Source: Deltaproteobacteria bacterium
GTDB lineage: Bacteria > Myxococcota_A > Polyangia > Polyangiales > Houyiibacteriaceae
Direction of reading: 5' to 3'
Assembly: GCA_017644045.1 (NCBI GenBank)
Contig: JAEPMI010000013.1
Location: 327,556 to 391,555 of the forward strand
DNA length: 64,000 nucleotides
Within the stretch, counting starts at the first letter, position 1. Every line of letters begins with the position of its first letter. A model generated the notes under the pieces. That model ran no database searches, had not been told where the DNA came from, and worked only from the letters and a program-made list of their open reading frames with translations. The position numbers and the translations under genes are program-made. Of the stretch, positions 4,188 to 63,304 are shown in pieces.

Positions 4188-4189
4188 GG

Positions 4190-4227
4190 AATCTCGACGC
4201 TCCCCCTTTGGGGAGCGCCGGAGATTG
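4190..4227 (+). terminator. GC-rich hairpin after slyD (CGCTCCCC-cttt-GGGGAGCG, flanked by AATCTC/GAGATT)
   Basis: Read directly 3 nt after the slyD stop. It has an 8-bp GC stem with a 4-nt loop and an outer 6-bp complementarity. There is no U-tract. Confidence 0.45.
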
Positions 4228-4292
4228 AACACGCAGACACGCGGGAGTTATCCTCTCCCACGGCGATTTTCCGACGGGACGAGGATTTCTTC

Positions 4293-5279
4293 ATGCGTGC
4301 CCATCGATCTCTTCTCTGCTTGGCGCTGGTGTTCGGCGGCTGCGACTGCGGTGATGACTCCACGGACGTGATGACCGACGACGCCGAGGACATGGGCGGC
4401 GGCGGCTCCGACATGAGCATGCCGACCGACGGAGAGGTCCCTGGAACCGACATGAGCGGCCCGACGGACCTCGGGCCCGTGGAGGACATGCTCCCGGACG
4501 GCAGCATCGTCCTCGATGGCGGCCGGGTCTGCTTCCCGGCGACCTGCCAAGGCAGCATCAACCACTGCGGCGACTGCGTGGACAACGACGGCGATGGGCT
4601 GGTCGACAGCGACGACCCAGACTGCCTCGGCCCCTGCGACAACAACGAGACCGGCCTCTATCACGGGCTTCCGGGCGGCGACACGCCCAACTGCAAGCTC
4701 GACTGCTACTACGACACCGACCAGGGCTCGGGGAACGATGGCTGCCGCTTCGACGCGCGCTGCGACCCGGAGAGCCCGGACGAGATCCCCAACTGCGTCT
4801 ACGACCCGACGCCGCCGCCTTCGGCGAACTGCGGAGACACGCAGACCGACGAGTGCATCGAGTTCTGTCAGCCGCTCACGCCCAACGGCTGTGACTGCTT
4901 CGGCTGCTGCGAGATTGGCGACCACACCGTCTTCGTCGGCTCCTACGACCCCGGGACCGACACGCACACCTGCACCCTCGAGCTCGCCCTCGCCGGTGAC
5001 CTCGAGGCCTGCCACGAGTGCACCCAGCAGATGGACTGCTTCAACGACTGCGGTCGCTGCGAGCTCTGCCTCGGCCGAGATCCCGAGGACCTGCCGGACG
5101 ACTGCTTCCCACCGCCGCCGACCGACATGGGTCCGCCGCCCGATGGGTCGACGCCCTCCGACATGTTCACGCCCGATCCCCGCTGTCCCGATGGGCGGCA
5201 GCCGTGTGGCGTCGAGGGCGACCCGATGTGTCCCGCCAACTACTTCTGCCTGACCGGCTGCTGCACCCTCTTCGGCTGA
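4293..5279 (+). CDS. Cysteine-rich secreted lipoprotein, unknown function
   Basis: Signal/lipobox MRAHRSLLCLALVFGGCDCGDD. Many Cys residues follow, including CGDCVDNDGDGLVDSDDPDCLGPC and CDCFGCCE, with a Pro-rich C-terminal part. Confidence 0.7.
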   Translation: MRAHRSLLCLALVFGGCDCGDDSTDVMTDDAEDMGGGGSDMSMPTDGEVPGTDMSGPTDLGPVEDMLPDGSIVLDGGRVCFPATCQGSINHCGDCVDNDGDGLVDSDDPDCLGPCDNNETGLYHGLPGGDTPNCKLDCYYDTDQGSGNDGCRFDARCDPESPDEIPNCVYDPTPPPSANCGDTQTDECIEFCQPLTPNGCDCFGCCEIGDHTVFVGSYDPGTDTHTCTLELALAGDLEACHECTQQMDCFNDCGRCELCLGRDPEDLPDDCFPPPPTDMGPPPDGSTPSDMFTPDPRCPDGRQPCGVEGDPMCPANYFCLTGCCTLFG

Positions 5280-6592: not shown

Positions 6593-7840
6593 CTAGAGCT
6601 TGCCCTTGCCGACGATCACGTCGGCGAGGGTGCACTCGGCGTCGCCGCTCGTGGCCTGCTGGAGCTCGTCGAGCTTCTCGGTCTTCACCTCGGCGCCGCG
6701 GATGGTGTCGAGCACCTCCTTCACGCTGGTGTCTTTGGCGCCCCGGATCAGCGCGACCCGTGGTCGCTGGTCTCGGCCGACGACCCGCACGAGCTTCCCG
6801 CGCCGTAGCGGGTCGAGCGCCTTCTCCAGCATCGCGCGCGGCACGCCGAGCCGGCGCGCGAGGGTGCGCAGCCGAGGCGGCGGGCGACCGGCCACCTCCG
6901 CTGCGGCCACGGCCTCCACCGCCGCGGCGGCGACGCCCTCCATCAGCCGGGAGCCCGGCCACGGCTCGCCGAGGCGGTAGCCGTAGTTCTGCCAGTCGTT
7001 GAGGAACGCCGCGACCTCGGCGCCGAGCAGCACCATCAACCAGCTCGAGAAGACCCAGAGCAGGAAGAGCGGCACGGCTGCGAGACCCGCATAGAGCGCG
7101 TCGTATCGAGCGACGATCACCTGCGCCTGCAGCTCGACCCAGAACGTGGCGTAGCCGAGGACGGCGGCGACCAGCCCACCGATGATCGCCGACTTCCACG
7201 GGACCGGTGCGTTCGCGACACCCTTGTAGAGCCCGGCACAGCCGATGGTCCCCAGGAAGACCGCGATCACGTGCAGGAGCTGCTTTGGGAACGCCGTGTC
7301 GACGTGCAGCTTGTGCATCACCGCCGCGAAGAGGGTGATCAGTCCGGCAGCGATCGGCAGGAGGAGGAAGAGCCCGAAGTAGTCCCGAAGCCGTCGCTCC
7401 CATCGGCGGTCCTGATCGGCGTCGAAGACGTCGTTCAGCGCGCCCTCCATCGCGGAGAACACCAGGACCACCGCGTAGAGGAGGACCGGCAGACCACCCC
7501 AGCCGAGCGCCCCGAGGTCTGCCCCATCGACCGTGGCCAGGAGCTGCCGCAGGGCCGTGGCCAGCGAGGTCTCCGTGCCTTCCGTCTCCTCACCGAAGGC
7601 CGCTCCCAGCCAGGGGTCCAGCACCTCGCGGCGGAGCGGTGAGTAGAGTCCGGTCAGGTCCAGGATCGCCACGACCAGCACCAAAAACGGCACCGCGGCG
7701 AAGGCCGTATCGAAGGCGAGACCACTCGCCTTCTCGAGCGGACGACGGTGGAGGAACCCCTTGGCGACCCATTTGACCGCTCCCCAGAGGTTGGGCTTGG
7801 TCCGCCAGTCGACGCCTACCACAGCCCATGGCTGCGACAT
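6593..7840 (-). CDS. YihY/BrkB (virulence factor BrkB / RNase BN-like) family membrane protein
   Basis: Start is taken at MSQPWAVVG (ATG 7840). Multi-pass hydrophobic core has the family-like segment YKGVANAPVPWKSAIIGGLVAAVLGY...LYAGLAAVPLFLLWVFSSWLMVLLGAEVAAF. The N-terminal 235 aa of the long ORF were rejected. Confidence 0.8.
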   Translation of the reverse strand: MSQPWAVVGVDWRTKPNLWGAVKWVAKGFLHRRPLEKASGLAFDTAFAAVPFLVLVVAILDLTGLYSPLRREVLDPWLGAAFGEETEGTETSLATALRQLLATVDGADLGALGWGGLPVLLYAVVLVFSAMEGALNDVFDADQDRRWERRLRDYFGLFLLLPIAAGLITLFAAVMHKLHVDTAFPKQLLHVIAVFLGTIGCAGLYKGVANAPVPWKSAIIGGLVAAVLGYATFWVELQAQVIVARYDALYAGLAAVPLFLLWVFSSWLMVLLGAEVAAFLNDWQNYGYRLGEPWPGSRLMEGVAAAAVEAVAAAEVAGRPPPRLRTLARRLGVPRAMLEKALDPLRRGKLVRVVGRDQRPRVALIRGAKDTSVKEVLDTIRGAEVKTEKLDELQQATSGDAECTLADVIVGKGKL

Positions 7841-27047: not shown

Positions 27048-28124
<1,077 letters not shown>

Positions 28125-28182
28125 GCGCGGATTGGCCGCGCCACCGCTCCGAGGGCTACGATCCCTCTCGGAGGTGGTGGTG

Positions 28183-28995
28183 ATGCGCTGGGTCATTCTC
28201 TTCTCGGGACTCCTGATCGCGTGCGGGGACGACGACGGATCGGCCGACGGTCCGGGATCCGACATGGCGGTCGCTGACTCCGGTAGCGGCGAGAGCGACG
28301 CTGGTGGCGGCGACGATGGCGGCCCGGCCGAAGACGGCGGCTCGCTGGACGACGGCGGCCCCGAGGGCGACATGGGTCCGGTCTGCAGCGAGATGAACCC
28401 GAGCGGGTTCTGCTCCGAGCGCGGCGTGAGCTGTGAGTGTTGCCCCGCGGGCGGGCCGCGTTCCAACTGCCTGTGCACCAGCACCTGCATGACGGACGAC
28501 GACTGCACGAACGCGGAGCGGCCGCGCTGCAACCGGGACATGATGAACCCCGGCGCGACCGGCATCTGCACTCCGACCGAGTTCGCCTGTGCCTGGGGGG
28601 CGATCTGCGCATCGCCCGACACCCCGATCGCCACGCCCGATGGTGATCGCGCGATCGGAACGCTGGTGCCCGGTGACCTCGTCTTCTCCATCGAAGATGG
28701 GGCGGTCGTCGCGGTCCCCATCGCGCGGGTCGCGCAGACCGAGGTCGACGAACACGTCGTCGTCCGCATCCGCCTCGACGGCGGTGACGAGCTCTTCCTG
28801 AGCCCGGGTCACCCGCTGGCCGATGGCGGCTCCGTGGGCGAGCTGGAGCCCGGCGACCTGCTCGGCGAGCTCGAGGTGCTCGAGACGGAGCTCGTCGAGT
28901 ACGAGCACCCGTCCACCCACGACATCTTGCCGGCGTCCGAGACCGGCGCGTACTTCGCCGGCGGCGCGCTGATGGGATCGTCGCTCTTCGAGTGA
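28183..28995 (+). CDS. Lipoprotein with Cys-rich N-domain and C-terminal Hint (hedgehog/intein, bacterial intein-like) domain
   Basis: MRWVILFSGLLIACGDDDGS lipobox. From about 28606 the sequence reads C-ASPDTPIATPDGDRAIGTLVPGDLVFS (Hint block A-like), LSPGHPL (TxxH-like block B) and THDILPASETGAYFAGGALMGS (block F/G-like). The protein ends 5 aa later. Confidence 0.6.
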   Translation: MRWVILFSGLLIACGDDDGSADGPGSDMAVADSGSGESDAGGGDDGGPAEDGGSLDDGGPEGDMGPVCSEMNPSGFCSERGVSCECCPAGGPRSNCLCTSTCMTDDDCTNAERPRCNRDMMNPGATGICTPTEFACAWGAICASPDTPIATPDGDRAIGTLVPGDLVFSIEDGAVVAVPIARVAQTEVDEHVVVRIRLDGGDELFLSPGHPLADGGSVGELEPGDLLGELEVLETELVEYEHPSTHDILPASETGAYFAGGALMGSSLFE

Positions 28996-30148: not shown

Positions 30149-30255
30149 GAATCCCGCGGCGGTCGTGCCTTTGGCGCACCAACTGTGTGCGAAGCGTCGT
30201 AGATCGCGGTGGCGCGCTTTGGCACCTTCGGCCGCGGAACACGGAGGTTGGTTAC

Positions 30256-32181
30256 ATGCGACGCGTAGTTTGGTTGCTTCCTTTCTTGGCCGCGATGGCC
30301 TTTGGTTGCGGTGAGTCCACGGTGGTGGACTCGGACGGAGGCGACGACGCCGACGCCGCCGTGACTCCCACCTGCGGCGAACGCGGGACCGATTGCTGTG
30401 ACGGCGACCTCTGTGAGGCCGGCCTGAGCTGCGAGGGTGGGACCTGCATCGATCCGACCTCCTGCGGCTTCGTCGGTGAGCCGTGCTGTGAAGATGGCGA
30501 CGAGTGCACCGGCACCGCGGTTTGCAACGCCTCGGGCGTCTGCGAGCCCGGCACCCCCGCCTGCGGCGACGAGGGCGATCCCTGCTGCGATGGCGACACC
30601 TGTACCGGGGACCTCGTGTGCACCGCCGGTGGCACCTGTGAGACCGAGACGCCCGACTGCGGCACCGTGGGCCTCAGCTGCTGCGACGGTGACGTCTGCA
30701 GCTCCGGCATCTGCGTGGATGGCACCTGCGAGCCCGAGCCGACCTGCGGCACGGTCGGCAACGAGTGCTGCGACGGCGGCCTCTGCGACACGGGCGTCTG
30801 CTCCGGCGGCAACTGCATCGCCTGCGGCGCCGGCGGCCAGACCTGCTGCGCCGGTGACGTCTGCGACAGCGGCAACACCTGCGATGGCGACACCTGCGTT
30901 TCGTGTGGCGGCGCTGGCGAGGCCTGCTGCGATCGCGGCACCTGCGACGGCGGCGGCTGCTGCGTCGGTGGTGACTGCGTCGCCGACGGCGACGACTGCG
31001 TGCCCGGCACGACGTGCGGCAGCGGAAGCTGCGGCGGCTGTGGTGGCCCCGGTGAGCCTTGCTGCCCCGGCAACACCTGCACCGCGGGTGGCGTGACGTG
31101 TGGCGCGGGCGGGAGCTGCGTGGCCTGCGGCGGCGCGGGTCAGCCCTGCTGCGGCGGCGACTCCTGCGACGGCGGCCTCGGCTGCGGTCCGGCGGGCGTC
31201 TGCGCCGCGTGTGGTGGCGCCGGCGAGGTGTGTTGCGCCGGTGACAGCTGCGACGCGGGCTTCGCCTGTGGCGGCGGCGACGTCTGCGTGACCTGCGGTG
31301 GACCGGGCGAGGCCTGCTGCGCGGGCGATACCTGCACCGATGGCTGCTGCGACCCTTCGACGGACGCGTGCGTCGCGACCGGTAGCGACTGCGGGTTCGG
31401 CGCGTGCGGTGCCAGCGGCAGCTGCGAGGTCTGCGGCTTCGCGGGCGAAGCCTGCTGCCCGGGCGACACCTGCGAGGGCGGCGGCTGCTGTGACGGCAGC
31501 ACCTGTGTGGCCAGCGGCTACGCGGTCTCGACGAGCGGCGAGGTCTGCAGCAACGGCATGGTCTCCGCCTGTGGCGGCGACGGACAGCCCTGCTGTGGTG
31601 ACCAGACCTGCAACGCGGGCGGCTGCTGCATCAACGGGACCTGCGCCGGCGCTGGCGAGGAGTGCTTCTCCGCCGGTGGTCCCGGTGGTGGCACCTTCAC
31701 CTGCATGGACAGCGAGTGCGCGACCGCCGGTGGCACCGACTGCGGCACGATCGGTGACGGCTGCTGCAACAGCCCCTTCGGCCGCTTCTGCACCGAGGCG
31801 GGCTCCATCTGCACGGGTGGCTTCGGCGGTGGCAACTGTCTCGCCTGCGGCGACCCCGGCGAGGCGTGTTGCGAGGGCCAGGCCTGCAACGGCGGTGGCT
31901 GCTGCGTCGACGGCGAGTGCGTCGGTGAGACCGACAGCTGCGGCGCCGGCGAGGGCAGCTGCGTCGCGGGCGCCTGTCAGGACGGCGCGTGCGGTCGCGT
32001 CGGTGGCCCGTGCTGTGGTTCCGGGATCGGTTGCAGCGCGCCCTTCGCCGTCTGCGGCGGCGGCGTCTGCGTCAGCTGCGGTGGTCTCGGCGAGAGCTGC
32101 TGCGGTGGCAACGAGTGCGCGCTGCCCTACGTGTGTCAGTTCGGCGGCGGTGGCGGCACCTGCGTCGAACCGTCCCCGTGA
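30256..32181 (+). CDS. Cys/Gly-rich repeat lipoprotein (641 aa), 17 CGxxGxxCC units, no family recognised
   Basis: MRRVVWLLPFLAAMAFGCGES lipobox after GGAGG. By my count there are 17 copies of C-G-x-x-G-x-x-C-C and 22 CC doublets, each followed by x-G-x-x-C-x-x-G-x-x-C. All six frames are open here, so strand choice rests on the lipobox and the Cys periodicity. Confidence 0.7.
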   Translation: MRRVVWLLPFLAAMAFGCGESTVVDSDGGDDADAAVTPTCGERGTDCCDGDLCEAGLSCEGGTCIDPTSCGFVGEPCCEDGDECTGTAVCNASGVCEPGTPACGDEGDPCCDGDTCTGDLVCTAGGTCETETPDCGTVGLSCCDGDVCSSGICVDGTCEPEPTCGTVGNECCDGGLCDTGVCSGGNCIACGAGGQTCCAGDVCDSGNTCDGDTCVSCGGAGEACCDRGTCDGGGCCVGGDCVADGDDCVPGTTCGSGSCGGCGGPGEPCCPGNTCTAGGVTCGAGGSCVACGGAGQPCCGGDSCDGGLGCGPAGVCAACGGAGEVCCAGDSCDAGFACGGGDVCVTCGGPGEACCAGDTCTDGCCDPSTDACVATGSDCGFGACGASGSCEVCGFAGEACCPGDTCEGGGCCDGSTCVASGYAVSTSGEVCSNGMVSACGGDGQPCCGDQTCNAGGCCINGTCAGAGEECFSAGGPGGGTFTCMDSECATAGGTDCGTIGDGCCNSPFGRFCTEAGSICTGGFGGGNCLACGDPGEACCEGQACNGGGCCVDGECVGETDSCGAGEGSCVAGACQDGACGRVGGPCCGSGIGCSAPFAVCGGGVCVSCGGLGESCCGGNECALPYVCQFGGGGGTCVEPSP

Positions 32182-32292
32182 CCTGAGGCGAGGGCCCCGG
32201 TTCGGTGACTGCATCGGACCGGGTGCTCGCATTCTCGAGAGGGCCGAGTTTCCACGGGCGCGTCAGCGGGGTTGACCCTATGCTGGCGCCCG

Positions 32293-34926
32293 ATGCGGGA
32301 CTCGGCCCTCGTCCTTTCCGTCTTGCTCGCGCTCGCGAGCGTGCTTCTTCCCTCTCCCGCCGCGGCGCAGTCCGACGCCGAAGAGGAAGAGCGGCAGCCC
32401 GTCGTGGTGCCGCCGCGCCTCGAGGAGTTCGTCGAGGCGACCTATCCACCGGCGGCGCAGGAAGCGCAGCTCGAGGCGACGGTCGAGCTGCAGATCACGA
32501 TCGCGGTGGACGGCTCGGTCACCGACGCCAGCGTGGTCGAGCCCAAAGGCAACGGCTTCGACGAGGCGGCGCTCGAGGCCGTCCGCCGTTTCCGCTTCAG
32601 CCCGGCGACCGTGGACGGGACGCCGACGCCGGTACGCATCCGCTACCGCTACGAGTTCACCCTCGACGAGCCGGAGCCCGAAGAGGAGCTCCCGCCGGAA
32701 GAAGAAGAGGAGCGACCCGGTCGGCTCGAGGGTCGCGTGCTCACCGTCGAGGACGACGAGCCGGTGGCGGGCGCCGAGGTCGTGCTCACCAACGCGGACC
32801 AGTCGATCGCTCGTCGCACCGTGGCCGCGGAAGACGGCTCGTTCCGGATGGACGAGCTCCCTCCCGGTGAGTACCAGGTTCGGATCCTGGGTGCCGAGTA
32901 CGGCGATCAGACGCAGACCGAGACCGTTGGCGCGGGCGAGGTCACGGAGGTGGTCTACCGCCTGCGCTCCGAAGCCGAGCAGGTGCCGGACGACGAGCTC
33001 AGCTTCGGTGCGACCGCCGTGGTCGAGGCACCGCCGCGCGAGGTCACCCGTCGGTCGATCGGTCGCGAGCAGCTCACGTCGATCCCGGGCACTCGCGGCG
33101 ACGCGCTCCGGGCGGTCGAGATCCTCCCCGGCGTCGCTCGTCCGGCCTTCGGCAGCGGCGCGCTCATCGTTCGCGGTGCGGCGCCCGGCGACAGCCAGGC
33201 CTTTCTCGAGGGCATCCCGATCCCGCTTCTCTACCACTTCGGCGGTCTGACGAGCTTCATCCAGTCGCGGCTCCTCGAGCGCGTCGACTTCTACCCGGGC
33301 AACTTCTCGGTCCGCTACGGCCGCAAGATGGGCGGCGTGCTCGAGGTCGAGACGCGCGACCCGCGCGGCGACGGTCTGCACGGCGTGGCGGAGCTGAGCG
33401 TCATCGACGTGGGTCTGCTCGCGGAGTTCCCGCTCGGCGAGAACGCGAGCGGCGCCTTCGGCATCCGTCGCAGCATGATCGACGTCGTCTTCAACAACGT
33501 CATCCCCGAGGACCTCGAGATCGGTGTCTCGCAGCTGCCCGTCTACTACGACTGGCAGGCGTTCGTGACCTGGCGCCCGACCGACCGCGACAAGGTGAAG
33601 ATGCTCGCGTACGGATCGAGCGATCGCTTCGAGATCTTCGCGGGTGACTCCATCGGCGACGACCCCGACGTGCGCGGCGACGTGAGCCTCACCACCCGCT
33701 TCAACTTCTTCCACCTGAACTGGAACCGCCAGATCGACTCGCGCAGCGACGTCGACATCGATCTGCAGTACGGACCGGTGCGGCTGAACTTCGGCCTCGG
33801 TGACCTCATCGAGTTCGACCTGCTCTCCCAGCAGGTCTACACGCGGATGGAGTACACGACGCGGCCGACCAGCAGCGTTCGACTCATCGCCGGTCTCGAC
33901 GCTTATGTCTCGCCCTTCACCCTCGACTACACCGGTCCGGCGCCTTGTCAGGGCGAGGGTGGCAACTGTCAGACCGAGCTCGACGACACCCTCGAGCCGC
34001 TCTCTTTCGATGGGGTCGCGACGCGGCCGGGCATCTACCTCGAGAGCGCTTTCGACCTCGCGCCCACGCGGCTCGTGATCGGTCTGCGGACCGACTACGA
34101 CTCGACCATCGATCGCTGGAACGTGGACCCGCGCTTCAGCGGCTTCCTCGACGTCGGTGGTGGCTTCAAGCTGAAGACGGGCCTCGGCCTCTACAGCCAG
34201 CCGCCGGAGTTCCAGGAGTCCGCAGAGGTCATCGGCAACCCGAACCTCGACTGGATCCACTCGGTTCACACCGGGCTCGGCGTCGAATACGAGAACGACG
34301 CCCTCGGCATCGAGGCGGGCGTCGAGGGGTTCTACAAGTACCTCTGGGACCGCGTCGTCGGCACCGAGAACGGCGTGCCGCCGCGCTTCATCAACGACGG
34401 CATCGGCCGCATCTACGGCATGGAGGTCAGCTTCCGCCATCAGATGCGCCGCGAGATCCCGCTCTTCTTGCAGCTCAGCTACACGCTGATGCGCAGCGAG
34501 CGCCGGGACGACCCGAGCTCGGACGAGGACTGGCGCCTCTTCGACTTCGACCAGACCCACATCTTCACGCTCGCGGCGAGCTACCGCCTGCCGAAGAACT
34601 GGGAGGTCGGCGCGGCCATCCGGATCATCAGCGGCAACCCCTACACGCCGATCGTCACCGGCATCTACAACGAGGACCGCGACACCTACCTGCCGGTCTA
34701 CGGCGCGAACAACAGCGTGCGGAACCCGCTCTACCACCGGCTCGATCTGCGGGTGGAGAAGAAGTGGAAGTTCAGCTCCTGGATGCTCGCCCTCTTCCTG
34801 GACATCCGGAACGTCTACAACCAGCAGAACCAGGAGGGGCTCATCTACAGCAACGACTATCGCCAGTCGACGCGGCTGACGGGCCTTCCCATCATCCCCG
34901 CGCTCGGCATTCGAGGTGAGCTGTGA
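32293..34926 (+). CDS. TonB-dependent receptor with N-terminal TonB C-terminal-like domain and CarboxypepD_reg domain
   Basis: Signal peptide SVLLALASVLLPSPAAAQ. TonB_C-like YPPAAQEAQLEATVELQITIAVDGSVTDASVVEPKGNGFDEAALEAVRRFRFSPA. GRLEGRVLT..AGAEVVL..GEYQVRI beta-sandwich. Plug motif TRGDALRAVEILPGV. Long barrel ends in ALGIRGEL. Confidence 0.8.
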   Translation: MRDSALVLSVLLALASVLLPSPAAAQSDAEEEERQPVVVPPRLEEFVEATYPPAAQEAQLEATVELQITIAVDGSVTDASVVEPKGNGFDEAALEAVRRFRFSPATVDGTPTPVRIRYRYEFTLDEPEPEEELPPEEEEERPGRLEGRVLTVEDDEPVAGAEVVLTNADQSIARRTVAAEDGSFRMDELPPGEYQVRILGAEYGDQTQTETVGAGEVTEVVYRLRSEAEQVPDDELSFGATAVVEAPPREVTRRSIGREQLTSIPGTRGDALRAVEILPGVARPAFGSGALIVRGAAPGDSQAFLEGIPIPLLYHFGGLTSFIQSRLLERVDFYPGNFSVRYGRKMGGVLEVETRDPRGDGLHGVAELSVIDVGLLAEFPLGENASGAFGIRRSMIDVVFNNVIPEDLEIGVSQLPVYYDWQAFVTWRPTDRDKVKMLAYGSSDRFEIFAGDSIGDDPDVRGDVSLTTRFNFFHLNWNRQIDSRSDVDIDLQYGPVRLNFGLGDLIEFDLLSQQVYTRMEYTTRPTSSVRLIAGLDAYVSPFTLDYTGPAPCQGEGGNCQTELDDTLEPLSFDGVATRPGIYLESAFDLAPTRLVIGLRTDYDSTIDRWNVDPRFSGFLDVGGGFKLKTGLGLYSQPPEFQESAEVIGNPNLDWIHSVHTGLGVEYENDALGIEAGVEGFYKYLWDRVVGTENGVPPRFINDGIGRIYGMEVSFRHQMRREIPLFLQLSYTLMRSERRDDPSSDEDWRLFDFDQTHIFTLAASYRLPKNWEVGAAIRIISGNPYTPIVTGIYNEDRDTYLPVYGANNSVRNPLYHRLDLRVEKKWKFSSWMLALFLDIRNVYNQQNQEGLIYSNDYRQSTRLTGLPIIPALGIRGEL

Positions 34927-35864
34927 AGTCGACGAGTCGAGCGCTGCTGGGGGTCTTCGTGCTCGCGGCTCTCGCGGCCTGCGGCGAGAGCCCGGACCCG
35001 GGCTATCTGCTGACCCGCCAGCGGGTCGTCGGCGCCATCCGCACGGTGGTCGGTGAGCCCGAGCGCACCACCCCGCGCCCCGGCGAGACCGTGCGCGTGC
35101 AGTGGCAGACGATCGCGCCCGGCGTCGTGGAGCCGCACACCTGGCTGATCCTCGCGTGTGCTCCCTCGGACCAGGCGTTCGGTGTTCCGGTCTGCGGCGA
35201 GGCGCCCTTCGAGATCTTCTCGCAGACCACGCCGGTCGACGGCCCGCCCGACCTCGAGATCGAGGTGCCTGCCGACTACGAGGCGGACCAGCTCGTCCTG
35301 CTCGGTTCGATCTGCATGGGCGGCATCGTGGAGACGAACCTCGACCCGACCAGCACGATCGAGGACCTGCGCCCCTGTCGCGGCGACGAGGGGACGGGTG
35401 AGATCGTGTCGGGCACCGTCACCGTCGAGCAGCGCCCCGAGCTCCGCAACCTGCGGCCGCGCTTCATGTCGCTCTCGCTCCGCGGCGAGGAGATGACGGA
35501 GACCGTCGACGAGGCCCGTCAGCCCTGCGTCGGTGGCACTCTGCCGGTGGTGAGCCTCGACGAGGAAGCCGAGATCACCATCACGCCGGTGCCGGACCAG
35601 CGAGAGACCTACATCGATCCGGTGCTCGAAGAGGAGACCGTCGAGGAGCTGCAGAACAGCCTCTTCGTCACCGAGGGCACGCTGAACCGGCGCTTCACCT
35701 TCATCGACGAGGGAACGCCCGAGCCTACCGTCGAGTTCCTCGCGGAGGCCGACGACGACGACCCGCTCCCCGACGAGGGCCGCAGCGTGAAGCTCGTCGT
35801 GGTCATGCGCGACCGCCGCGGCGGCGAAGACATCATCAGCCGCGCCTTCTGCCTCGTCCCCTGA
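34923..35864 (+). CDS. Lipoprotein, unknown function, translationally coupled to the TonB-dependent receptor
   Basis: GTG start overlaps the receptor stop (GTGA). Lipobox LGVFVLAALAACGESPD. There is no recognisable motif. Confidence 0.6.
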   Translation: MKSTSRALLGVFVLAALAACGESPDPGYLLTRQRVVGAIRTVVGEPERTTPRPGETVRVQWQTIAPGVVEPHTWLILACAPSDQAFGVPVCGEAPFEIFSQTTPVDGPPDLEIEVPADYEADQLVLLGSICMGGIVETNLDPTSTIEDLRPCRGDEGTGEIVSGTVTVEQRPELRNLRPRFMSLSLRGEEMTETVDEARQPCVGGTLPVVSLDEEAEITITPVPDQRETYIDPVLEEETVEELQNSLFVTEGTLNRRFTFIDEGTPEPTVEFLAEADDDDPLPDEGRSVKLVVVMRDRRGGEDIISRAFCLVP

Positions 35865-58957: not shown

Positions 58958-59029
58958 TCGGACGGAACTCACTGCGGGCCGGGGAGAACGGCGGCATCCG
59001 ACCGTATCCCCAACCGGAGGACCTTCGCC

Positions 59030-62000
59030 TTGCCGTACCTGCTCCGTCTCGCCGCCGCCGCGGCCCTCTCGACCTTCGCGCTCTCGGCCGCCGCCGAAGC
59101 CCAGACCACGATCCCGGGCGGCAACCTCGGGCCGGCCACCACCTGGACGCTCGCCGGCAGCCCCTACATCGTGCAGGGCGACGTGACCGTTCCGACGGGA
59201 GCCACGCTCACGATCCAGGCGGGAGCCGAGGTGCGCTTCGCGACGAGCGACCTGCTCGCCAGTGGCCTCGACACCGCTCGGGTCGAGCTCACGGTCGAGG
59301 GCACGCTCAACGTGCAAGGCGACTCGGCGTCTCCCGTGCTGATGCGCGCGAACGGCACGACCACCCCGGGCTCCTGGTACGGCGTCGTGGTCGCGAGCGG
59401 CTCCGCCTCGGCCACCTTCGACCACGTCCAGATGCGGCATGGCCGCTATGGCGTTCGCGCCGATGACGACGTGACCATGAACGACGCCGACCTGCAGGAC
59501 ATCTCCCAGTACGGCGTCTACGTCGAGAGCGGCAGCACCACGCTCACGCGCCTGCGCGCCACTCGGACGCGATACGGCGTCTACGTGACCAGCGCCGGCT
59601 CTGCGGTCCTGGACGAGGCGATCATCTGGGACCAGTCGATCCACTGCATCCAGATCGACCAGAACAGCTCGTCGCCAGCGGACACGCAGATCCTGCAGTC
59701 GACCCTCTACGACTGCAGCTACGGCGTCTACTACAACGCCGCCTCCGGCACGAGCCGGCGCGGCGTGGTCCGCGACAGCATCGCGACCAACAACCGGAGC
59801 TACGGCATTCGGCGTGCGGCGTCCGGCACGTTGGAGGTCACCTACACGAATGCCTGGGGCAACTCGAGCGGCGACCTCAGCGGCACCACGGGCAGCACCG
59901 GCAACATCGACACCAACCCGCTCTACGTGAGCGCGCCGACCGACTTTCGGATCACCTCGCGCTCGCCGGCTCGCCTCGCGGGCTCCACCGGCCAGGACCT
60001 GGGCGCGCTGCCCTACGCCGGCGACCTGACCACGGCACTCACCGGGGCCCTCTACTCCGACCTCACCCTCGCCGCCGGCACACACACGGTCACGGGCGAC
60101 CTCATCGTCCGGCCGGGGGTCACGTTGACCCTCGACCCCGGAGCCCGGCTCCGATTCGCGACGAGCGACCTGATGCAGGCGGGTGTGGACACCAGCCGGG
60201 TGGAGCTCCGCGTCCAGGGCACGCTCTCCGCGACAGGAACGGCGATGGCGCCGGTCGAGCTCGAAGGCGTCTCGACGACGGCGGGCAGCTGGTACGGCGT
60301 GCGGCTGGAGACCGGCGGCACGGCGACGATTCAGAACGCCGACATTCGACACGGGCGCTACGGCCTCCGCCTCGAGGACAGCGCTTCCCACGTGCTGGCG
60401 GGGATCGTCCTGCAGGACATCTCGCAGTACGGCGTCTACGTCGACAGCGGCCTGCACGCGATCGATCGGTTGACGGCGACGCGGACTCGCTACGGCGCGT
60501 ACGTGAGCAGCGCCGGCGCGCTCGAGCTCGACGAGGCGATCATCTGGGACCAGTCGATCCACTGCGTCCAGATCGACCAGAACACCAGCTCGCCGGCGAA
60601 CTCGGTGATCACCCAGTCGACCTTCTACGACTGCAGCTACGGCGTCTATTACAACGCCGCGTCGGGCACGAGCCGCCGCGCGATCGTCACCGACTCCATC
60701 GTCACCAACAACCGGAGCTATGGCATCCGGCGAGCGGCCTCCGGCACGCTCGAGGTCACCTACACCGACGCGTGGGCCAACTCGAGTGGTGACCTGAGCG
60801 GCACGACGGGCGGCACCGGGAACATCGTGAGCAACCCGCTCTACGTGAGCGCTCCGACCAACTTCCGGATCACCTCGCGCTCGCCGGCGCGCAGCGCCGG
60901 ATCGATGGGTCAGGACATGGGCGCGCTCCCCTACATCGACGACCTGACCGCCAACCTGCAGGGATCGCTCTATGAGGATCTCTCGCTGCCTTCCGGTACT
61001 CACACCGTCCAGGGCGACCTGATCGTCGAGACCGGGGTGACCCTCACGCTGGAGCCCGGTGCGCGCCTGCGCTTCGCGACCAGCGACGGGATGCAGGCCG
61101 GCGCCGACACCTCCCGCGTCGAGCTGATCGTTCGCGGTACGTTGAACGCCACGGGGACCACGGCGAACCCGGTGCGGCTCGAAGGCGTGTCCACCACGCC
61201 GGGAAGCTGGTATGGCGTCCGCTTCGAGCTCGACGCGACCATGACACTGCAGAACGCGATCGTGGAGCACGGGCGCTATGGCCTGCGCCTCGAGGACGTC
61301 GGCACCCACACGCTGAACCGCATCCAGCTCGAGGACATCTCCCAGTACGGCATCTACGTGGACCGCGGCAGCTTTCAGCTCGACCGCATCACCGCGACGC
61401 GGACGCGCTACGGCCTCTACGTGACCAGCGCCGCGTCGGTACAGCTCACCAACGCGCTCATCCACGACCAGTCGATTCACTGCGTGCAGGTGGATCAGAA
61501 CAGCTCGTCGCCGGCGGACACCGTCCTGGAGCACGTGACCTTCTACGACTGCTCCTACGGCGTCTACTACAACGCCGCGAGCGGCACCTCGCGGCGAACC
61601 GTGGTGCGCAGCTCGCTGGCGACCAACAACCGCAGCTATGGCATCCGGCGGGCCGCATCCGGCACGCTCGAGGTCACCTACACGAACGCCTGGGGCAACT
61701 CGAGCGGCAACCTCAGCGGCACGACCGGCGGTACCGGCAACCTCTCGGCGAACCCGCTCTACGTCGCTCCGGGCAGCGACTTCCATCTGACCATGACCAG
61801 CGTCTCGGTCGACGCGGGTGACCCCGGCGGGAGCGCGACGGTCGACCTCGAGGGCACGGCCCGCCCGCTCGACGGCAACGGGCTCGGCGGGGCCGAGCCG
61901 GACCAGGGCGCCTACGAGTACGTGGCGATGGTCATGTGCGGCAACGGTGTGACCGAGGCCGGCGAGAGCTGCGACGACGGCGCCGCCAACGGCAGCTACG

Positions 62001-63304
62001 GGGCGTGCGCGTCCGATTGCTCTGGACCGGGGCCCTTCTGCGGTGACGGAACGATGAACGGGCCCGAGGGCTGCGATGACGGCAACATGTCGAACACCGA
62101 CGGCTGCCTCAACGACTGCACCACGGCGACCTGCGGCGACGGCTTCATCCGCGCCGGCATGGAGCAGTGCGACGACGGCAACGCCTCGACGACCGACGGC
62201 TGCGCGAACTGCATGATGGCGACCTGCGGCGATGGCTTCGTCCGCACCGGGGTCGAGCAGTGCGACGACGGCAACATGTCGACGTCCGACGCCTGCGTGA
62301 TGTGCATGAACGCGACCTGCGGCGACGGCTTCGTCCAGACCGGTGTGGAGCAGTGCGACGACGCGAACGCGACCAGCACCGACGCCTGCGTGTCCTGCAT
62401 GAACGCGCGCTGTGGCGATGGTCAGATCTGGGCCGGCATGGAGGTCTGCGACGACGGCAACACCGTGGGCGGCGACGGATGCCCCGCGAACTGCGGCGCC
62501 GCGATGTGCGGTGACGGAGTCGTCGATGGTGACGAGGAGTGCGACGACGGCAACGCCGTCAACGGCGACGCCTGCACCAACGGCTGCGTCGCGGCGCGCT
62601 GCGGCGACGGCATCCTCTACATGGGCATGGAGGACTGCGACGACGGCAACGGCGCCAACACCGACGCGTGCCTCAACGACTGCTCCATGGCGATGTGTGG
62701 TGACGGCTTCGTTCGCGCGGGCGTCGAGACCTGCGACGACGGCAACGACGACGACACCGACGGCTGCACCAACACCTGCACGCTCCGGACCTGCGGCGAT
62801 GGCACGGTGCAGACCGGCGAGGCCTGCGACGACGGCAATGCGTCCGACACCGACGACTGCCTGAGCACCTGCCAGAACGCGAGCTGCGGCGACGGCTTCC
62901 GCCAGGTCGGGGTCGAGGCCTGCGACGACGGCAACGCCTCGGACGCGGACGAGTGTCTGGCCGACTGCCGGAACGCGAGCTGCGGCGACGGCTTCATCTG
63001 GGACGGCGTCGAGGAGTGTGACGACGGCAACGGCGAGGACGGCGACGGCTGCGACGCGGCCTGCATGATCGAAGAGGACATGCCCGACCCCGACGGTGGC
63101 GTGCCCGACGAGGACGGCGGCGTGACGGCCGACGACATGTTCACCGGTGGCAGCGACGGAGGCGTCGGCGTGGACGCCGGCACCGAGGACGGTGGCGACG
63201 GCGGTTGCGGTTGTCGCGTGGCGGGCGAGCCGGTCGAGCGGCCCTTCGCACCCTGGCTCGCGCTCGGTGGGCTCGGCCTGCTCTGGTGGCGCCGCCGCCG
63301 CTGA
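59030..63304 (+). CDS. Giant surface protein: three 306-aa right-handed beta-helix-like modules, 12 TIGR02232-type Cys repeats and a MYXO-CTERM tail
   Basis: Signal peptide LAAAAALSTFALSAAAEAQ. Three collinear modules follow (RFATSD...SWYGV...HGRYG..DISQYG.YV...TRTRYG.YV...DQSIHC.Q.DQN.SSPA...FYDCSYGVYYNAASGTSRR...NNRSYGIRRAASGTLEVTYT.AW.NSSG.LSGTTG). Then come 12 units of CGDGxxxxGxExCDDGN...D.C...C. The C-terminus is GGCGCRVAGEPVERPFAPWLALGGLGLLWWRRRR. Confidence 0.85.
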   Translation: MPYLLRLAAAAALSTFALSAAAEAQTTIPGGNLGPATTWTLAGSPYIVQGDVTVPTGATLTIQAGAEVRFATSDLLASGLDTARVELTVEGTLNVQGDSASPVLMRANGTTTPGSWYGVVVASGSASATFDHVQMRHGRYGVRADDDVTMNDADLQDISQYGVYVESGSTTLTRLRATRTRYGVYVTSAGSAVLDEAIIWDQSIHCIQIDQNSSSPADTQILQSTLYDCSYGVYYNAASGTSRRGVVRDSIATNNRSYGIRRAASGTLEVTYTNAWGNSSGDLSGTTGSTGNIDTNPLYVSAPTDFRITSRSPARLAGSTGQDLGALPYAGDLTTALTGALYSDLTLAAGTHTVTGDLIVRPGVTLTLDPGARLRFATSDLMQAGVDTSRVELRVQGTLSATGTAMAPVELEGVSTTAGSWYGVRLETGGTATIQNADIRHGRYGLRLEDSASHVLAGIVLQDISQYGVYVDSGLHAIDRLTATRTRYGAYVSSAGALELDEAIIWDQSIHCVQIDQNTSSPANSVITQSTFYDCSYGVYYNAASGTSRRAIVTDSIVTNNRSYGIRRAASGTLEVTYTDAWANSSGDLSGTTGGTGNIVSNPLYVSAPTNFRITSRSPARSAGSMGQDMGALPYIDDLTANLQGSLYEDLSLPSGTHTVQGDLIVETGVTLTLEPGARLRFATSDGMQAGADTSRVELIVRGTLNATGTTANPVRLEGVSTTPGSWYGVRFELDATMTLQNAIVEHGRYGLRLEDVGTHTLNRIQLEDISQYGIYVDRGSFQLDRITATRTRYGLYVTSAASVQLTNALIHDQSIHCVQVDQNSSSPADTVLEHVTFYDCSYGVYYNAASGTSRRTVVRSSLATNNRSYGIRRAASGTLEVTYTNAWGNSSGNLSGTTGGTGNLSANPLYVAPGSDFHLTMTSVSVDAGDPGGSATVDLEGTARPLDGNGLGGAEPDQGAYEYVAMVMCGNGVTEAGESCDDGAANGSYGACASDCSGPGPFCGDGTMNGPEGCDDGNMSNTDGCLNDCTTATCGDGFIRAGMEQCDDGNASTTDGCANCMMATCGDGFVRTGVEQCDDGNMSTSDACVMCMNATCGDGFVQTGVEQCDDANATSTDACVSCMNARCGDGQIWAGMEVCDDGNTVGGDGCPANCGAAMCGDGVVDGDEECDDGNAVNGDACTNGCVAARCGDGILYMGMEDCDDGNGANTDACLNDCSMAMCGDGFVRAGVETCDDGNDDDTDGCTNTCTLRTCGDGTVQTGEACDDGNASDTDDCLSTCQNASCGDGFRQVGVEACDDGNASDADECLADCRNASCGDGFIWDGVEECDDGNGEDGDGCDAACMIEEDMPDPDGGVPDEDGGVTADDMFTGGSDGGVGVDAGTEDGGDGGCGCRVAGEPVERPFAPWLALGGLGLLWWRRRR
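59103..61856 (+). repeat. Three tandem 918-bp coding repeats (approximate outer boundaries)
   Basis: Marker strings recur with an exact 918-bp period: c-g-(c/a)-ttcgcg at 59234/60152/61070 and accagtcgat at 59631/60549/61467. Confidence 0.8.

Follow-up and report, generated by a model that had tools for sequence, protein, structure and literature searches.

The gene at positions 30256-32181 of the plus strand in a 64,000-nucleotide stretch of contig JAEPMI010000013.1 (this whole stretch is called the window below) encodes a Cys-rich lipoprotein of 641 amino acids (aa). Judging from the sequence, the mature protein consists of 17 small units in a row, built on a six-Cys module, and this module is an offshoot of the four-Cys DUF7107 repeat. 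We favour, with a probability of roughly 0.55, the reading that the protein is a non-enzymatic, protease-resistant, disulfide-stapled surface scaffold or binding array. The features of the gene, all on the plus strand, were as follows.

30243-30247, plus strand: GGAGG, resembling a Shine-Dalgarno sequence, 8 nt 5' of the ATG, read from the sequence
30256-32181, plus strand: open reading frame of the Cys-rich lipoprotein, translated as 641 aa plus stop
30256-30309, plus strand: predicted signal peptide and lipobox, MRRVVWLLPFLAAMAFG followed by C, with residue 18 as the lipid-modified Cys, from the translation and the lipoboxes of orthologs
30310-30372, plus strand: acidic Cys-free tether, aa 19-39, GESTVVDSDGGDDADAAVTPT, from composition
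30373-31431, plus strand: N-terminal array of 11 units, aa 40-392, from unit parsing
31108-31335, plus strand: tandem repeat of 84 nt x 2.7 copies with 71% matches, the single one of notable size in the DNA of the gene, from Tandem Repeats Finder
31432-32178, plus strand: conserved C-terminal 249-aa module of six units, three of them long, aa 393-641, from alignments A2 and A4 (46-54 invariant columns)
32179-32181, plus strand: stop codon TGA, read from the sequence

The Cys-rich gene and its repeat units

Units were defined by splitting the protein at each CG..G..CC. Eleven of the 17 units were short (26-35 aa, six Cys) and six were long (45-57 aa, eight or ten Cys). When 120 relatives were added to the query, 975 CG.....CC motifs were available and the unit periods peaked at 27-28 aa and 46-48 aa. 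The basic module is about 28 aa long and follows the consensus Ca-G-x-x-G-[QE]-[PA]-Cb-Cc-x-G-x-x-Cd-x-x-G-x-x-Ce-x-x-G-x-Cf. Since the array starts with Ca and ends with Cf, and Pro/Thr/Glu linkers occur only at this place, the border of two units lies after Cf and before the Ca that follows. The linkers consisted of 5-7 Pro/Thr/Glu residues in the first four units and of about 2 residues between the later ones.

A preliminary description, prepared from the sequence alone, had presented the gene product as a lipoprotein composed nearly throughout of short Cys/Gly units, with 17 copies of CG..G..CC and 22 CC doublets. The reading frame, the lipobox pattern and the unit parsing agree with this picture, and both counts were confirmed. 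In 5000 shuffles of the mature sequence the motif appeared 0.29 times on average and at most 3 times, against the 17 copies observed, while the 22 CC doublets are as many as composition predicts (22.9 +/- 3.9). Chance thus does not account for the motif array but does account for the CC count alone; the regular placement of the doublets is their only non-random aspect. The 84-nt period of the tandem repeat at 31108-31335 matches the 28-aa period of units 8-10 (aa 262-346). The DNA-level repeats of the gene are old, and a recent tandem duplication was considered and rejected because these repeats are weak.

Every unit contained an even number of Cys, and the mature protein contained 120. Among natural variants, Ca and Cc were missing together in 33 units and Cb and Ce in 6, the latter including the unit of two relatives (P0004 and P0020) that aligns to aa 579-607 of the 641-aa protein. 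Long units that had lost Cb had also lost the second Cys in their second doublet. This pairwise loss argues for disulfides rather than metal thiolates and, by elimination, for the pairing a-c, b-e and d-f (1-3, 2-5, 4-6). The module would then consist of a two-disulfide hairpin core (b-e, d-f), of the DUF7107 or disulfide-directed beta-hairpin type, and an N-terminal loop stapled by the extra disulfide, and the modules with eight or ten Cys would be the same core with an added disulfide-bonded loop.

AlphaFold2 (AF2) predicted the units as confident beta-hairpin mini-domains. The model of three units (aa 262-346; alignment of 77 sequences) reached a predicted local distance difference test score (pLDDT) of 92.2 and a predicted template modelling score (pTM) of 0.72, and the model of the C-terminal module (aa 393-641; 69 sequences) reached a pLDDT of 90.3 and a pTM of 0.81. 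Judging by these pTM values, the units seem to be fixed in place with respect to each other and not to behave as loose beads. The two strands of a hairpin carry Ce and Cf in the three-unit model, as in disulfide-directed hairpins.

No match with E<1 was found by Foldseek in the PDB for either model, and at the sequence level neither the protein nor the three-unit profile found anything there below E 0.3. Small domains rarely reach significance in structure searches. The weak top matches of the three-unit model were a double-knot toxin, spider knottins, EETI-II, cyclotides and the N-terminal domain of Dkk4. Foldseek E-values of these matches ranged from 1 to 9, and the template modelling (TM) score on the target reached at most 0.65, for spider knottins, with a root-mean-square deviation of 2.3 A over 30 residues. 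For the C-terminal module the weak matches were follistatin, Pfs25 and R-spondin, all with TM <0.15 on the query.

The N-terminus, MRR-VVWLLPFLAAMAF-G-C, combines positive charge with a hydrophobic core and has its lipobox Cys within the first ~40 residues. AMAFGC fits the PROSITE PS51257 lipoprotein pattern in a by-eye check, and classical lipoboxes, among them LALVAC, LLVGC and VTVGC, were present in 4 of 4 full-length orthologs (L010-L013, described below). The 641-aa protein thus has the marks of a bacterial lipoprotein, that is, of a substrate of signal peptidase II, and its lipidation is predicted. At the position of the acidic tether, short-form relatives carry longer D/P/A-rich tethers. 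The N-terminal array is composed of nine short six-Cys units and two long ten-Cys units (aa 217-261 and 347-392); long units also occur inside the C-terminal module. The whole protein contains 121 Cys (18.9%), 160 Gly (25%), 6 Arg and no Lys. Its Arg depletion is distinctive (0.9%, versus 5-12% in neighbouring exported proteins), whereas acidity was rejected as a special feature, as neighbouring exported proteins are equally acidic and Lys-poor. The aromatic residues, which had been described as confined to the last 60 aa, are spread more widely: 10 of the 13 in the mature protein lie within the last 249 aa and 3 lie in the 353-aa array.

A 1.05-Mb scaffold of a metagenome-assembled genome (MAG) and a Logan contig each carried a call of an identical protein. 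Four full-length orthologs were obtained by scanning species-representative genomes; in the C-terminal part they were 93% (L010, uncultured Sandaracinus sp.), 70% (L011, Myxococcales UBA1660), 59% (L012, a 9-Mb Polyangiales chromosome) and 59% (L013, a Polyangiaceae bin) identical. Identity in the N-terminal array was 87% for L010 and 60% for L011. Compared with the Sandaracinus MAG ortholog (L010, 90% identical overall), the ratio of nonsynonymous to synonymous substitution rates (dN/dS) was 0.126, the differences at codon positions 1, 2 and 3 numbered 41, 30 and 169, and 121 of 121 Cys were kept; 120 of 121 were kept in L011 (66% identity). The GC content at third codon positions was 0.86 in the sense frame. 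These comparisons indicate that the Cys-rich frame is under purifying selection and that a Sandaracinus-like myxobacterium (Polyangia) has a real gene at 30256-32181.

The opposite possibility, namely that the open frame merely reflects high GC content or that the other strand is the coding one, has in its favour that one antisense frame is also fully open. The remaining four frames contain 4-16 stops each, so that the earlier statement that codon repetition keeps all six frames open needs correction. The open antisense frame results from the 70-73% GC, not from codon repetition, and the TonB-receptor gene next door likewise has a fully open antisense frame. A dN/dS of 0.13, substitutions falling mostly on third codon positions, complete retention of Cys, the presence of a Shine-Dalgarno sequence and a lipobox, and other proteins that read the same repeat in frame with S8, GH5 and CBM9-like domains leave this possibility with practically no probability. 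On the sequence comparisons, the antisense reading is excluded and the idea that there is no gene here is effectively refuted.

Relation to DUF7107 and spread of the family

Pfam and NCBIfam scans of the 641-aa protein gave no match, even at E<=10, while the same libraries found 11 TIGR02232 repeats (215 bits) in the gene at 58958-63301 of the window. Neither TIGR02232 nor PF13948 DUF4215 matched the protein at E<=10, and the earlier statement that its repeat differs from TIGR02232 holds. The TraA-type repeat TIGR04201 gave no match in the NCBIfam scan, the presence of this model in release 20.0 being assumed. The Pfam model PF23416 DUF7107, with a gathering score of 24.6 bits, also found no match in the protein.

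When the three-unit profile was searched against a library of 1.84 billion proteins, a trypsin-like peptidase (P0193) was found at E 1.5e-25. Its repeats are DUF7107 (106 bits), overlapped by Dickkopf_N and EB matches, and are without CG..G..CC. Alignment of 55 six-Cys units (A7) with 39 DUF7107-type units (A6) by hhalign gave 95.1% probability and E 3e-8 over 26 of the 27 columns, scores which short Cys-rich profiles may inflate. Cb, Cd, Ce and Cf fell on the four DUF7107 Cys, and G-x-x-G-Q-P fell on the same motif. The profile match and the in-register alignment together point to the Cys-rich module as a six-Cys offshoot of the four-Cys DUF7107 repeat. A single-unit hidden Markov model (HMM) scaled to the full library size did not detect P0193, and a four-Cys variant unit in another relative (P0048) scored only 22 bits against the DUF7107 cut-off of 24.6.

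The view that the protein resembles no known Cys-rich fold has to be revised in this light, as the unit aligns in register with DUF7107 and has knottins and Dickkopf-4 as weak structural neighbours. DUF7107 (PF23416) has no known function and no mention of it was found in the literature searched, so the repeat has not turned out to be a described family with known function. The repeat itself, DUF7107 and the Cys-rich proteins of Sandaracinus were looked for in the literature, and no description was found. In the trypsin-like peptidases P0193 and P0228, 12-17 DUF7107 units were also scored as Dickkopf_N and as EB module, and the three Pfam models therefore overlap on bacterial four-Cys hairpin repeats.

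The three-unit profile retrieved 1932 representative clusters at E<=1e-3 and 671 at E<=1e-10. According to source names and 80 of 80 genome loci these belong to Myxococcota, a few generically labelled or probably misbinned MAGs aside. The family is apparently restricted to Myxococcota and forms a large, uncurated branch of DUF7107-type hairpin repeats. A rough census of 340 relatives gave 207 array-only proteins, 67 with a domain N-terminal of the array, 41 with a domain C-terminal of it and 25 with domains on both sides; at least 156 of the 340 had a lipobox. Among 56 multidomain relatives, Peptidase_S8 was found in 11 and Trypsin_2 in 3, and M4, M23, GH5, LamG, VWA, FG-GAP, PD40, sortilin and kinase domains occurred as single cases. 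Fusions with CBM9-like domains were also frequent among the relatives.

The C-terminal 249-aa module was common to 154 proteins at E<=1e-10. Most of these were shorter (~130-445 aa, many of them fragments), and those inspected were lipoproteins in which a lipobox and a disordered tether precede the module, which is kept column by column. In the alignment of 69 sequences, conservation inside the module was confined nearly entirely to Cys, Gly and Pro together with the Q/E of GQPCC, and no aromatic column was conserved in at least half of the sequences. The best database match of the protein (P0001; L004 21-1715) was a gene call at a contig start with a dihydroorotase-like N-terminus and a Cys-rich C-terminal module; a frameshift or the fusing of two genes in the call is a more probable cause than a real fusion.

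Possible functions and the neighbouring receptor

In the reading that we favour, the protein would be exported through the Sec pathway and then lipid-modified at Cys18, and it would probably be sorted to the outer membrane because there is no Lys at position +2. Once mature, it would consist of 17 small beta-hairpin modules in a row, standing in an extracellular space that around a predatory bacterium is rich in proteases. Its N-terminal array may form a semi-rigid, protease-resistant stalk that holds the conserved C-terminal module off the membrane. The C-terminal module could then act as a binding head, and the whole array as a multivalent surface for binding or adhesion. A non-enzymatic role is suggested because the conserved positions are nearly all Cys, Gly or Pro and carry no catalytic signature. 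An arrangement of stalk and head fits the proposal that the Cys-rich repeats of TraA form a rigid stalk (PMC3325183), and it also fits the frequent fusion to secreted hydrolases. Tandem disulfide-rich domains give avidity (PMC9885460, PMC6262176), and a multivalent head or array agrees with this argument (PMC9885460). Protease resistance agrees with the almost complete lack of Lys, Arg and large hydrophobic residues in this product of a bacterium with many secreted proteases. Of the roles put forward in the preliminary description, it is thus the disulfide surface scaffold, in its disulfide-stapled version, that the evidence favours.

Several points weigh against this reading. No direct functional clue was found for any family member and no ligand is indicated, and the gene neighbourhoods of eight relatives, when compared, had nothing in common. 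The disulfide map is based on co-loss statistics, not on coordinates or chemistry. Surface exposure is presumed, with location on the periplasmic face as the alternative. Furthermore, catalytic domains may precede or follow the arrays, and the majority of relatives consist of an array only, so that a pure spacer role cannot be the whole story. A further-reaching version, which we regard as tentative and distinctly less probable, is that the six-Cys module and the 249-aa assembly characterise Myxococcota-specific "poly-hairpin" surface lipoproteins, in which the head is a new disulfide-laced fold with its own ligand. If this were true, the head might serve, for example, in adhesion to the prey envelope or matrix or in multivalent capture of secreted enzymes, and these lipoproteins would be to bacteria what tandem cysteine-rich receptors and toxins are to eukaryotes.

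Among the other functions considered, the array might bind carbohydrate in the way of tandem small carbohydrate-binding modules (CBMs) and in this way anchor the cell, or enzymes fused to the array, on polysaccharide or peptidoglycan. Relatives are indeed fused to GH5, CBM9-like, M23 and LamG domains, the CGG..G start and the C-x4-5-C spacing superficially resemble fungal CBM1, and the few conserved aromatics cluster in the C-terminal module. However, the Pfam scan of the 641-aa protein gave no CBM match, CBM_1 included; the short units are nearly free of aromatics (3 in 353 aa) whereas small CBMs need an aromatic platform, such as the conserved triad on the flat face of CBM1, and the module alignment lacks an aromatic column shared by half or more of its 69 sequences. 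We consider this function unlikely. Even lower on our scale stands a multi-headed inhibitor or toxin-like array, in which knottin-like units would block a target such as the bacterium's own or a prey protease and gain avidity by multivalency. The top Foldseek matches, though weak, were knottin inhibitors and toxins including EETI-II and double-knot toxins, secreted peptidase fusions occur in up to 16 of the 56 multidomain relatives (summed Pfam counts), and avidity is known for tandem disulfide-rich domains (PMC9885460, PMC6262176). Against these stand the Foldseek E-values, all >1, the predicted 1-3, 2-5, 4-6 pairing in place of the knottin 1-4, 2-5, 3-6, the short, variable, Gly-rich inter-Cys loops without a conserved reactive-site residue, and the tethering of the protein to its own membrane. 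The preliminary description had also proposed a metal or polysulfide binder, which would work with reduced Cys thiolates in the manner of metallothionein. The composition (19% Cys, 25% Gly and many Asp/Glu) and a MopE copper-binding motif present elsewhere in a few relatives would suit it, but we judge it very improbable because natural variants lose Cys in specific pairs, the Cys count is even in each unit and 120 in the mature protein, and the protein is exported. Being exported and lipidated, the protein would sit in an oxidising compartment; in addition, the AF2 models show confident hairpins although no metal is present, and the homologous DUF7107 units retain only the four core Cys.

A role beside the downstream gene was considered as well. 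For context, this gene is:

32293-34926, plus strand: TonB-dependent receptor (TonB_C at the N-terminus, CarboxypepD_reg, Plug and barrel), from Pfam

The preliminary description had placed the receptor 112 bp downstream on the same strand and had hinted at a link between the two genes. The strand was right, but the gap from the stop of the Cys-rich gene to the receptor ATG (32293) is 111 nt. In a surface co-receptor role, like that of TbpB with TbpA or SusD with SusC, the lipoprotein would first take up a substrate and then pass it on to the barrel. The short same-strand gaps in three genomes (111 nt here, 86 nt in L010 and 56 nt in L011) are compatible with such a pair, as are the lack of a terminator-like site in the 111-nt gap and the order MutY, Cys-rich gene, receptor, which is kept in L010, L011 and the 92%-identical locus L090. 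The order also resembles the tbpB-tbpA layout, in which the lipoprotein gene lies upstream and the receptor gene follows. Synteny tests in both directions gave a different result. No receptor was near the Cys-rich gene in L012, in the other 76 loci of the ortholog scan or on the contigs of eight further relatives, and in L013 the receptor and a 313-aa gene lie on the opposite strand. In the reciprocal test, the Cys-rich gene was present at 1 of 27 receptor loci with at least 2 kb of upstream sequence, namely L090, and a homolog of the 313-aa lipoprotein lay directly downstream of the orthologous receptor in 45 of 55 metagenome loci. The conserved adjacency and co-orientation typical of TbpB/SusD-like pairs was thus limited to L010, L011 and L090. 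According to this synteny, the conserved partner of the receptor is the 313-aa lipoprotein and the adjacency of the Cys-rich gene is local and coincidental; the receptor-partner idea was rejected, and a co-receptor function appears improbable.

Other observations were made around the receptor. In the window the receptor and the 313-aa lipoprotein gene span 32293-35864, with overlapping stop and start codons, and the 313-aa protein had no family match. The pair is kept in 45 of 55 metagenome loci (range L092-L142) at a receptor identity of 45-59%, which suggests a dedicated receptor-lipoprotein module. About 20 nt directly 5' of the receptor ATG are conserved in three genomes (window 32272-32292, L010 7116-7136, L011 6780-6800) and read in frame as LTLCWRP, LTLCCRP and LVLCCAP; they could be a regulatory element or belong to an upstream TTG start. 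Relative to the window, L010 carries an in-frame insert of ~190 nt in the signal-peptide region of the receptor (7137-7350), which may be a real insertion or an assembly artefact. Upstream of the Cys-rich gene, a 270-aa lipoprotein (MRWVILFSGLLIACGDDD...; 28183-28995 and 28009-28989, both plus strand) gave a weak match to Hint_2 (intein/hedgehog-like), which at 24 bits was below the cut-off of 28.4.

Two more proteins of the window are of related interest. The gene at 58958-63301 (plus strand) encodes 1447 aa with a right-handed beta-helix (NosD-like), 11 acidic TIGR02232/DUF4215 repeats and a MYXO-CTERM sorting signal, and it confirms that the DNA comes from Myxococcota. The gene at 4188-5276 (plus strand) encodes a second, unrelated Cys-rich putative lipoprotein (MRAHRSLLCLALVFGGC...) with 9.6% Cys, in which no Pfam or NCBIfam match and no CG..G..CC motif was found.

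Significance and comparison with known systems

Myxobacteria export very many Cys-rich proteins, most of which are annotated as "hypothetical". The six-Cys form of the module has not previously been catalogued, and the module is common in myxobacterial secreted proteins. Judged by its predicted model, the 249-aa assembly is without a structural counterpart in the PDB. The module is now defined by its boundaries, a probable disulfide map, a link to DUF7107 and ~1,900 clusters, and the 249-aa assembly is defined with it. These definitions would permit a curated family model and a better annotation of the Myxococcota exoproteome. Their small size, confident prediction and dense cross-linking may make the units useful as stable scaffolds, and they offer a tractable case for how two-disulfide hairpins acquire extra disulfides. 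Current views of these bacteria are not changed; until a ligand is found the value is mainly one of cataloguing and structure, and nothing so far indicates an unusual mechanism for the Cys-rich lipoprotein.

Knottins share with the unit a length of ~30 residues, six Cys including a CC doublet, and a C-terminal beta-hairpin carrying two Cys, and the tandem units with short linkers recall double-knot toxins and secreted cysteine-rich repeat peptides (SCREPs). The predicted a-c and b-e bonds would correspond to knottin I-IV and III-VI, but the third disulfide would be d-f instead of II-V, so that the knottin connectivity (I-IV, II-V, III-VI) is departed from; with the third bond re-paired, no closed ring and therefore no knot is expected. 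The knottin likeness is accompanied by no significant sequence or structure match, and a membrane-anchored bacterial protein of 17 units differs from a secreted peptide.

In the same phylum, the TIGR02232/DUF4215 and TIGR04201 repeats of Myxococcota are likewise tandem extracellular Cys-rich repeats of cell-surface proteins, for which a rigid-stalk role has been proposed (PMC3325183). Their Cys pattern is another one and their HMMs do not match the Cys-rich protein. The TIGR02232 protein at 58958-63301 ends in a MYXO-CTERM, whereas the anchor of the Cys-rich protein would be its N-terminal lipid.

The closest likeness is that to DUF7107. Both units have four core Cys with the spacing C-x5-C-x5-C-x3-4-C and an upstream G-x-x-G-[QED]-P motif, and both are found in tandem, joined to trypsin-like peptidases that are secreted and to other exoproteins. 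The Cys-rich unit differs by two extra Cys, Ca and Cc, the latter completing the CC doublet, and their joint loss in natural variants implies a third disulfide. Neither the long units, which have eight or ten Cys, nor the fixed C-terminal module of 249 aa belongs to DUF7107.

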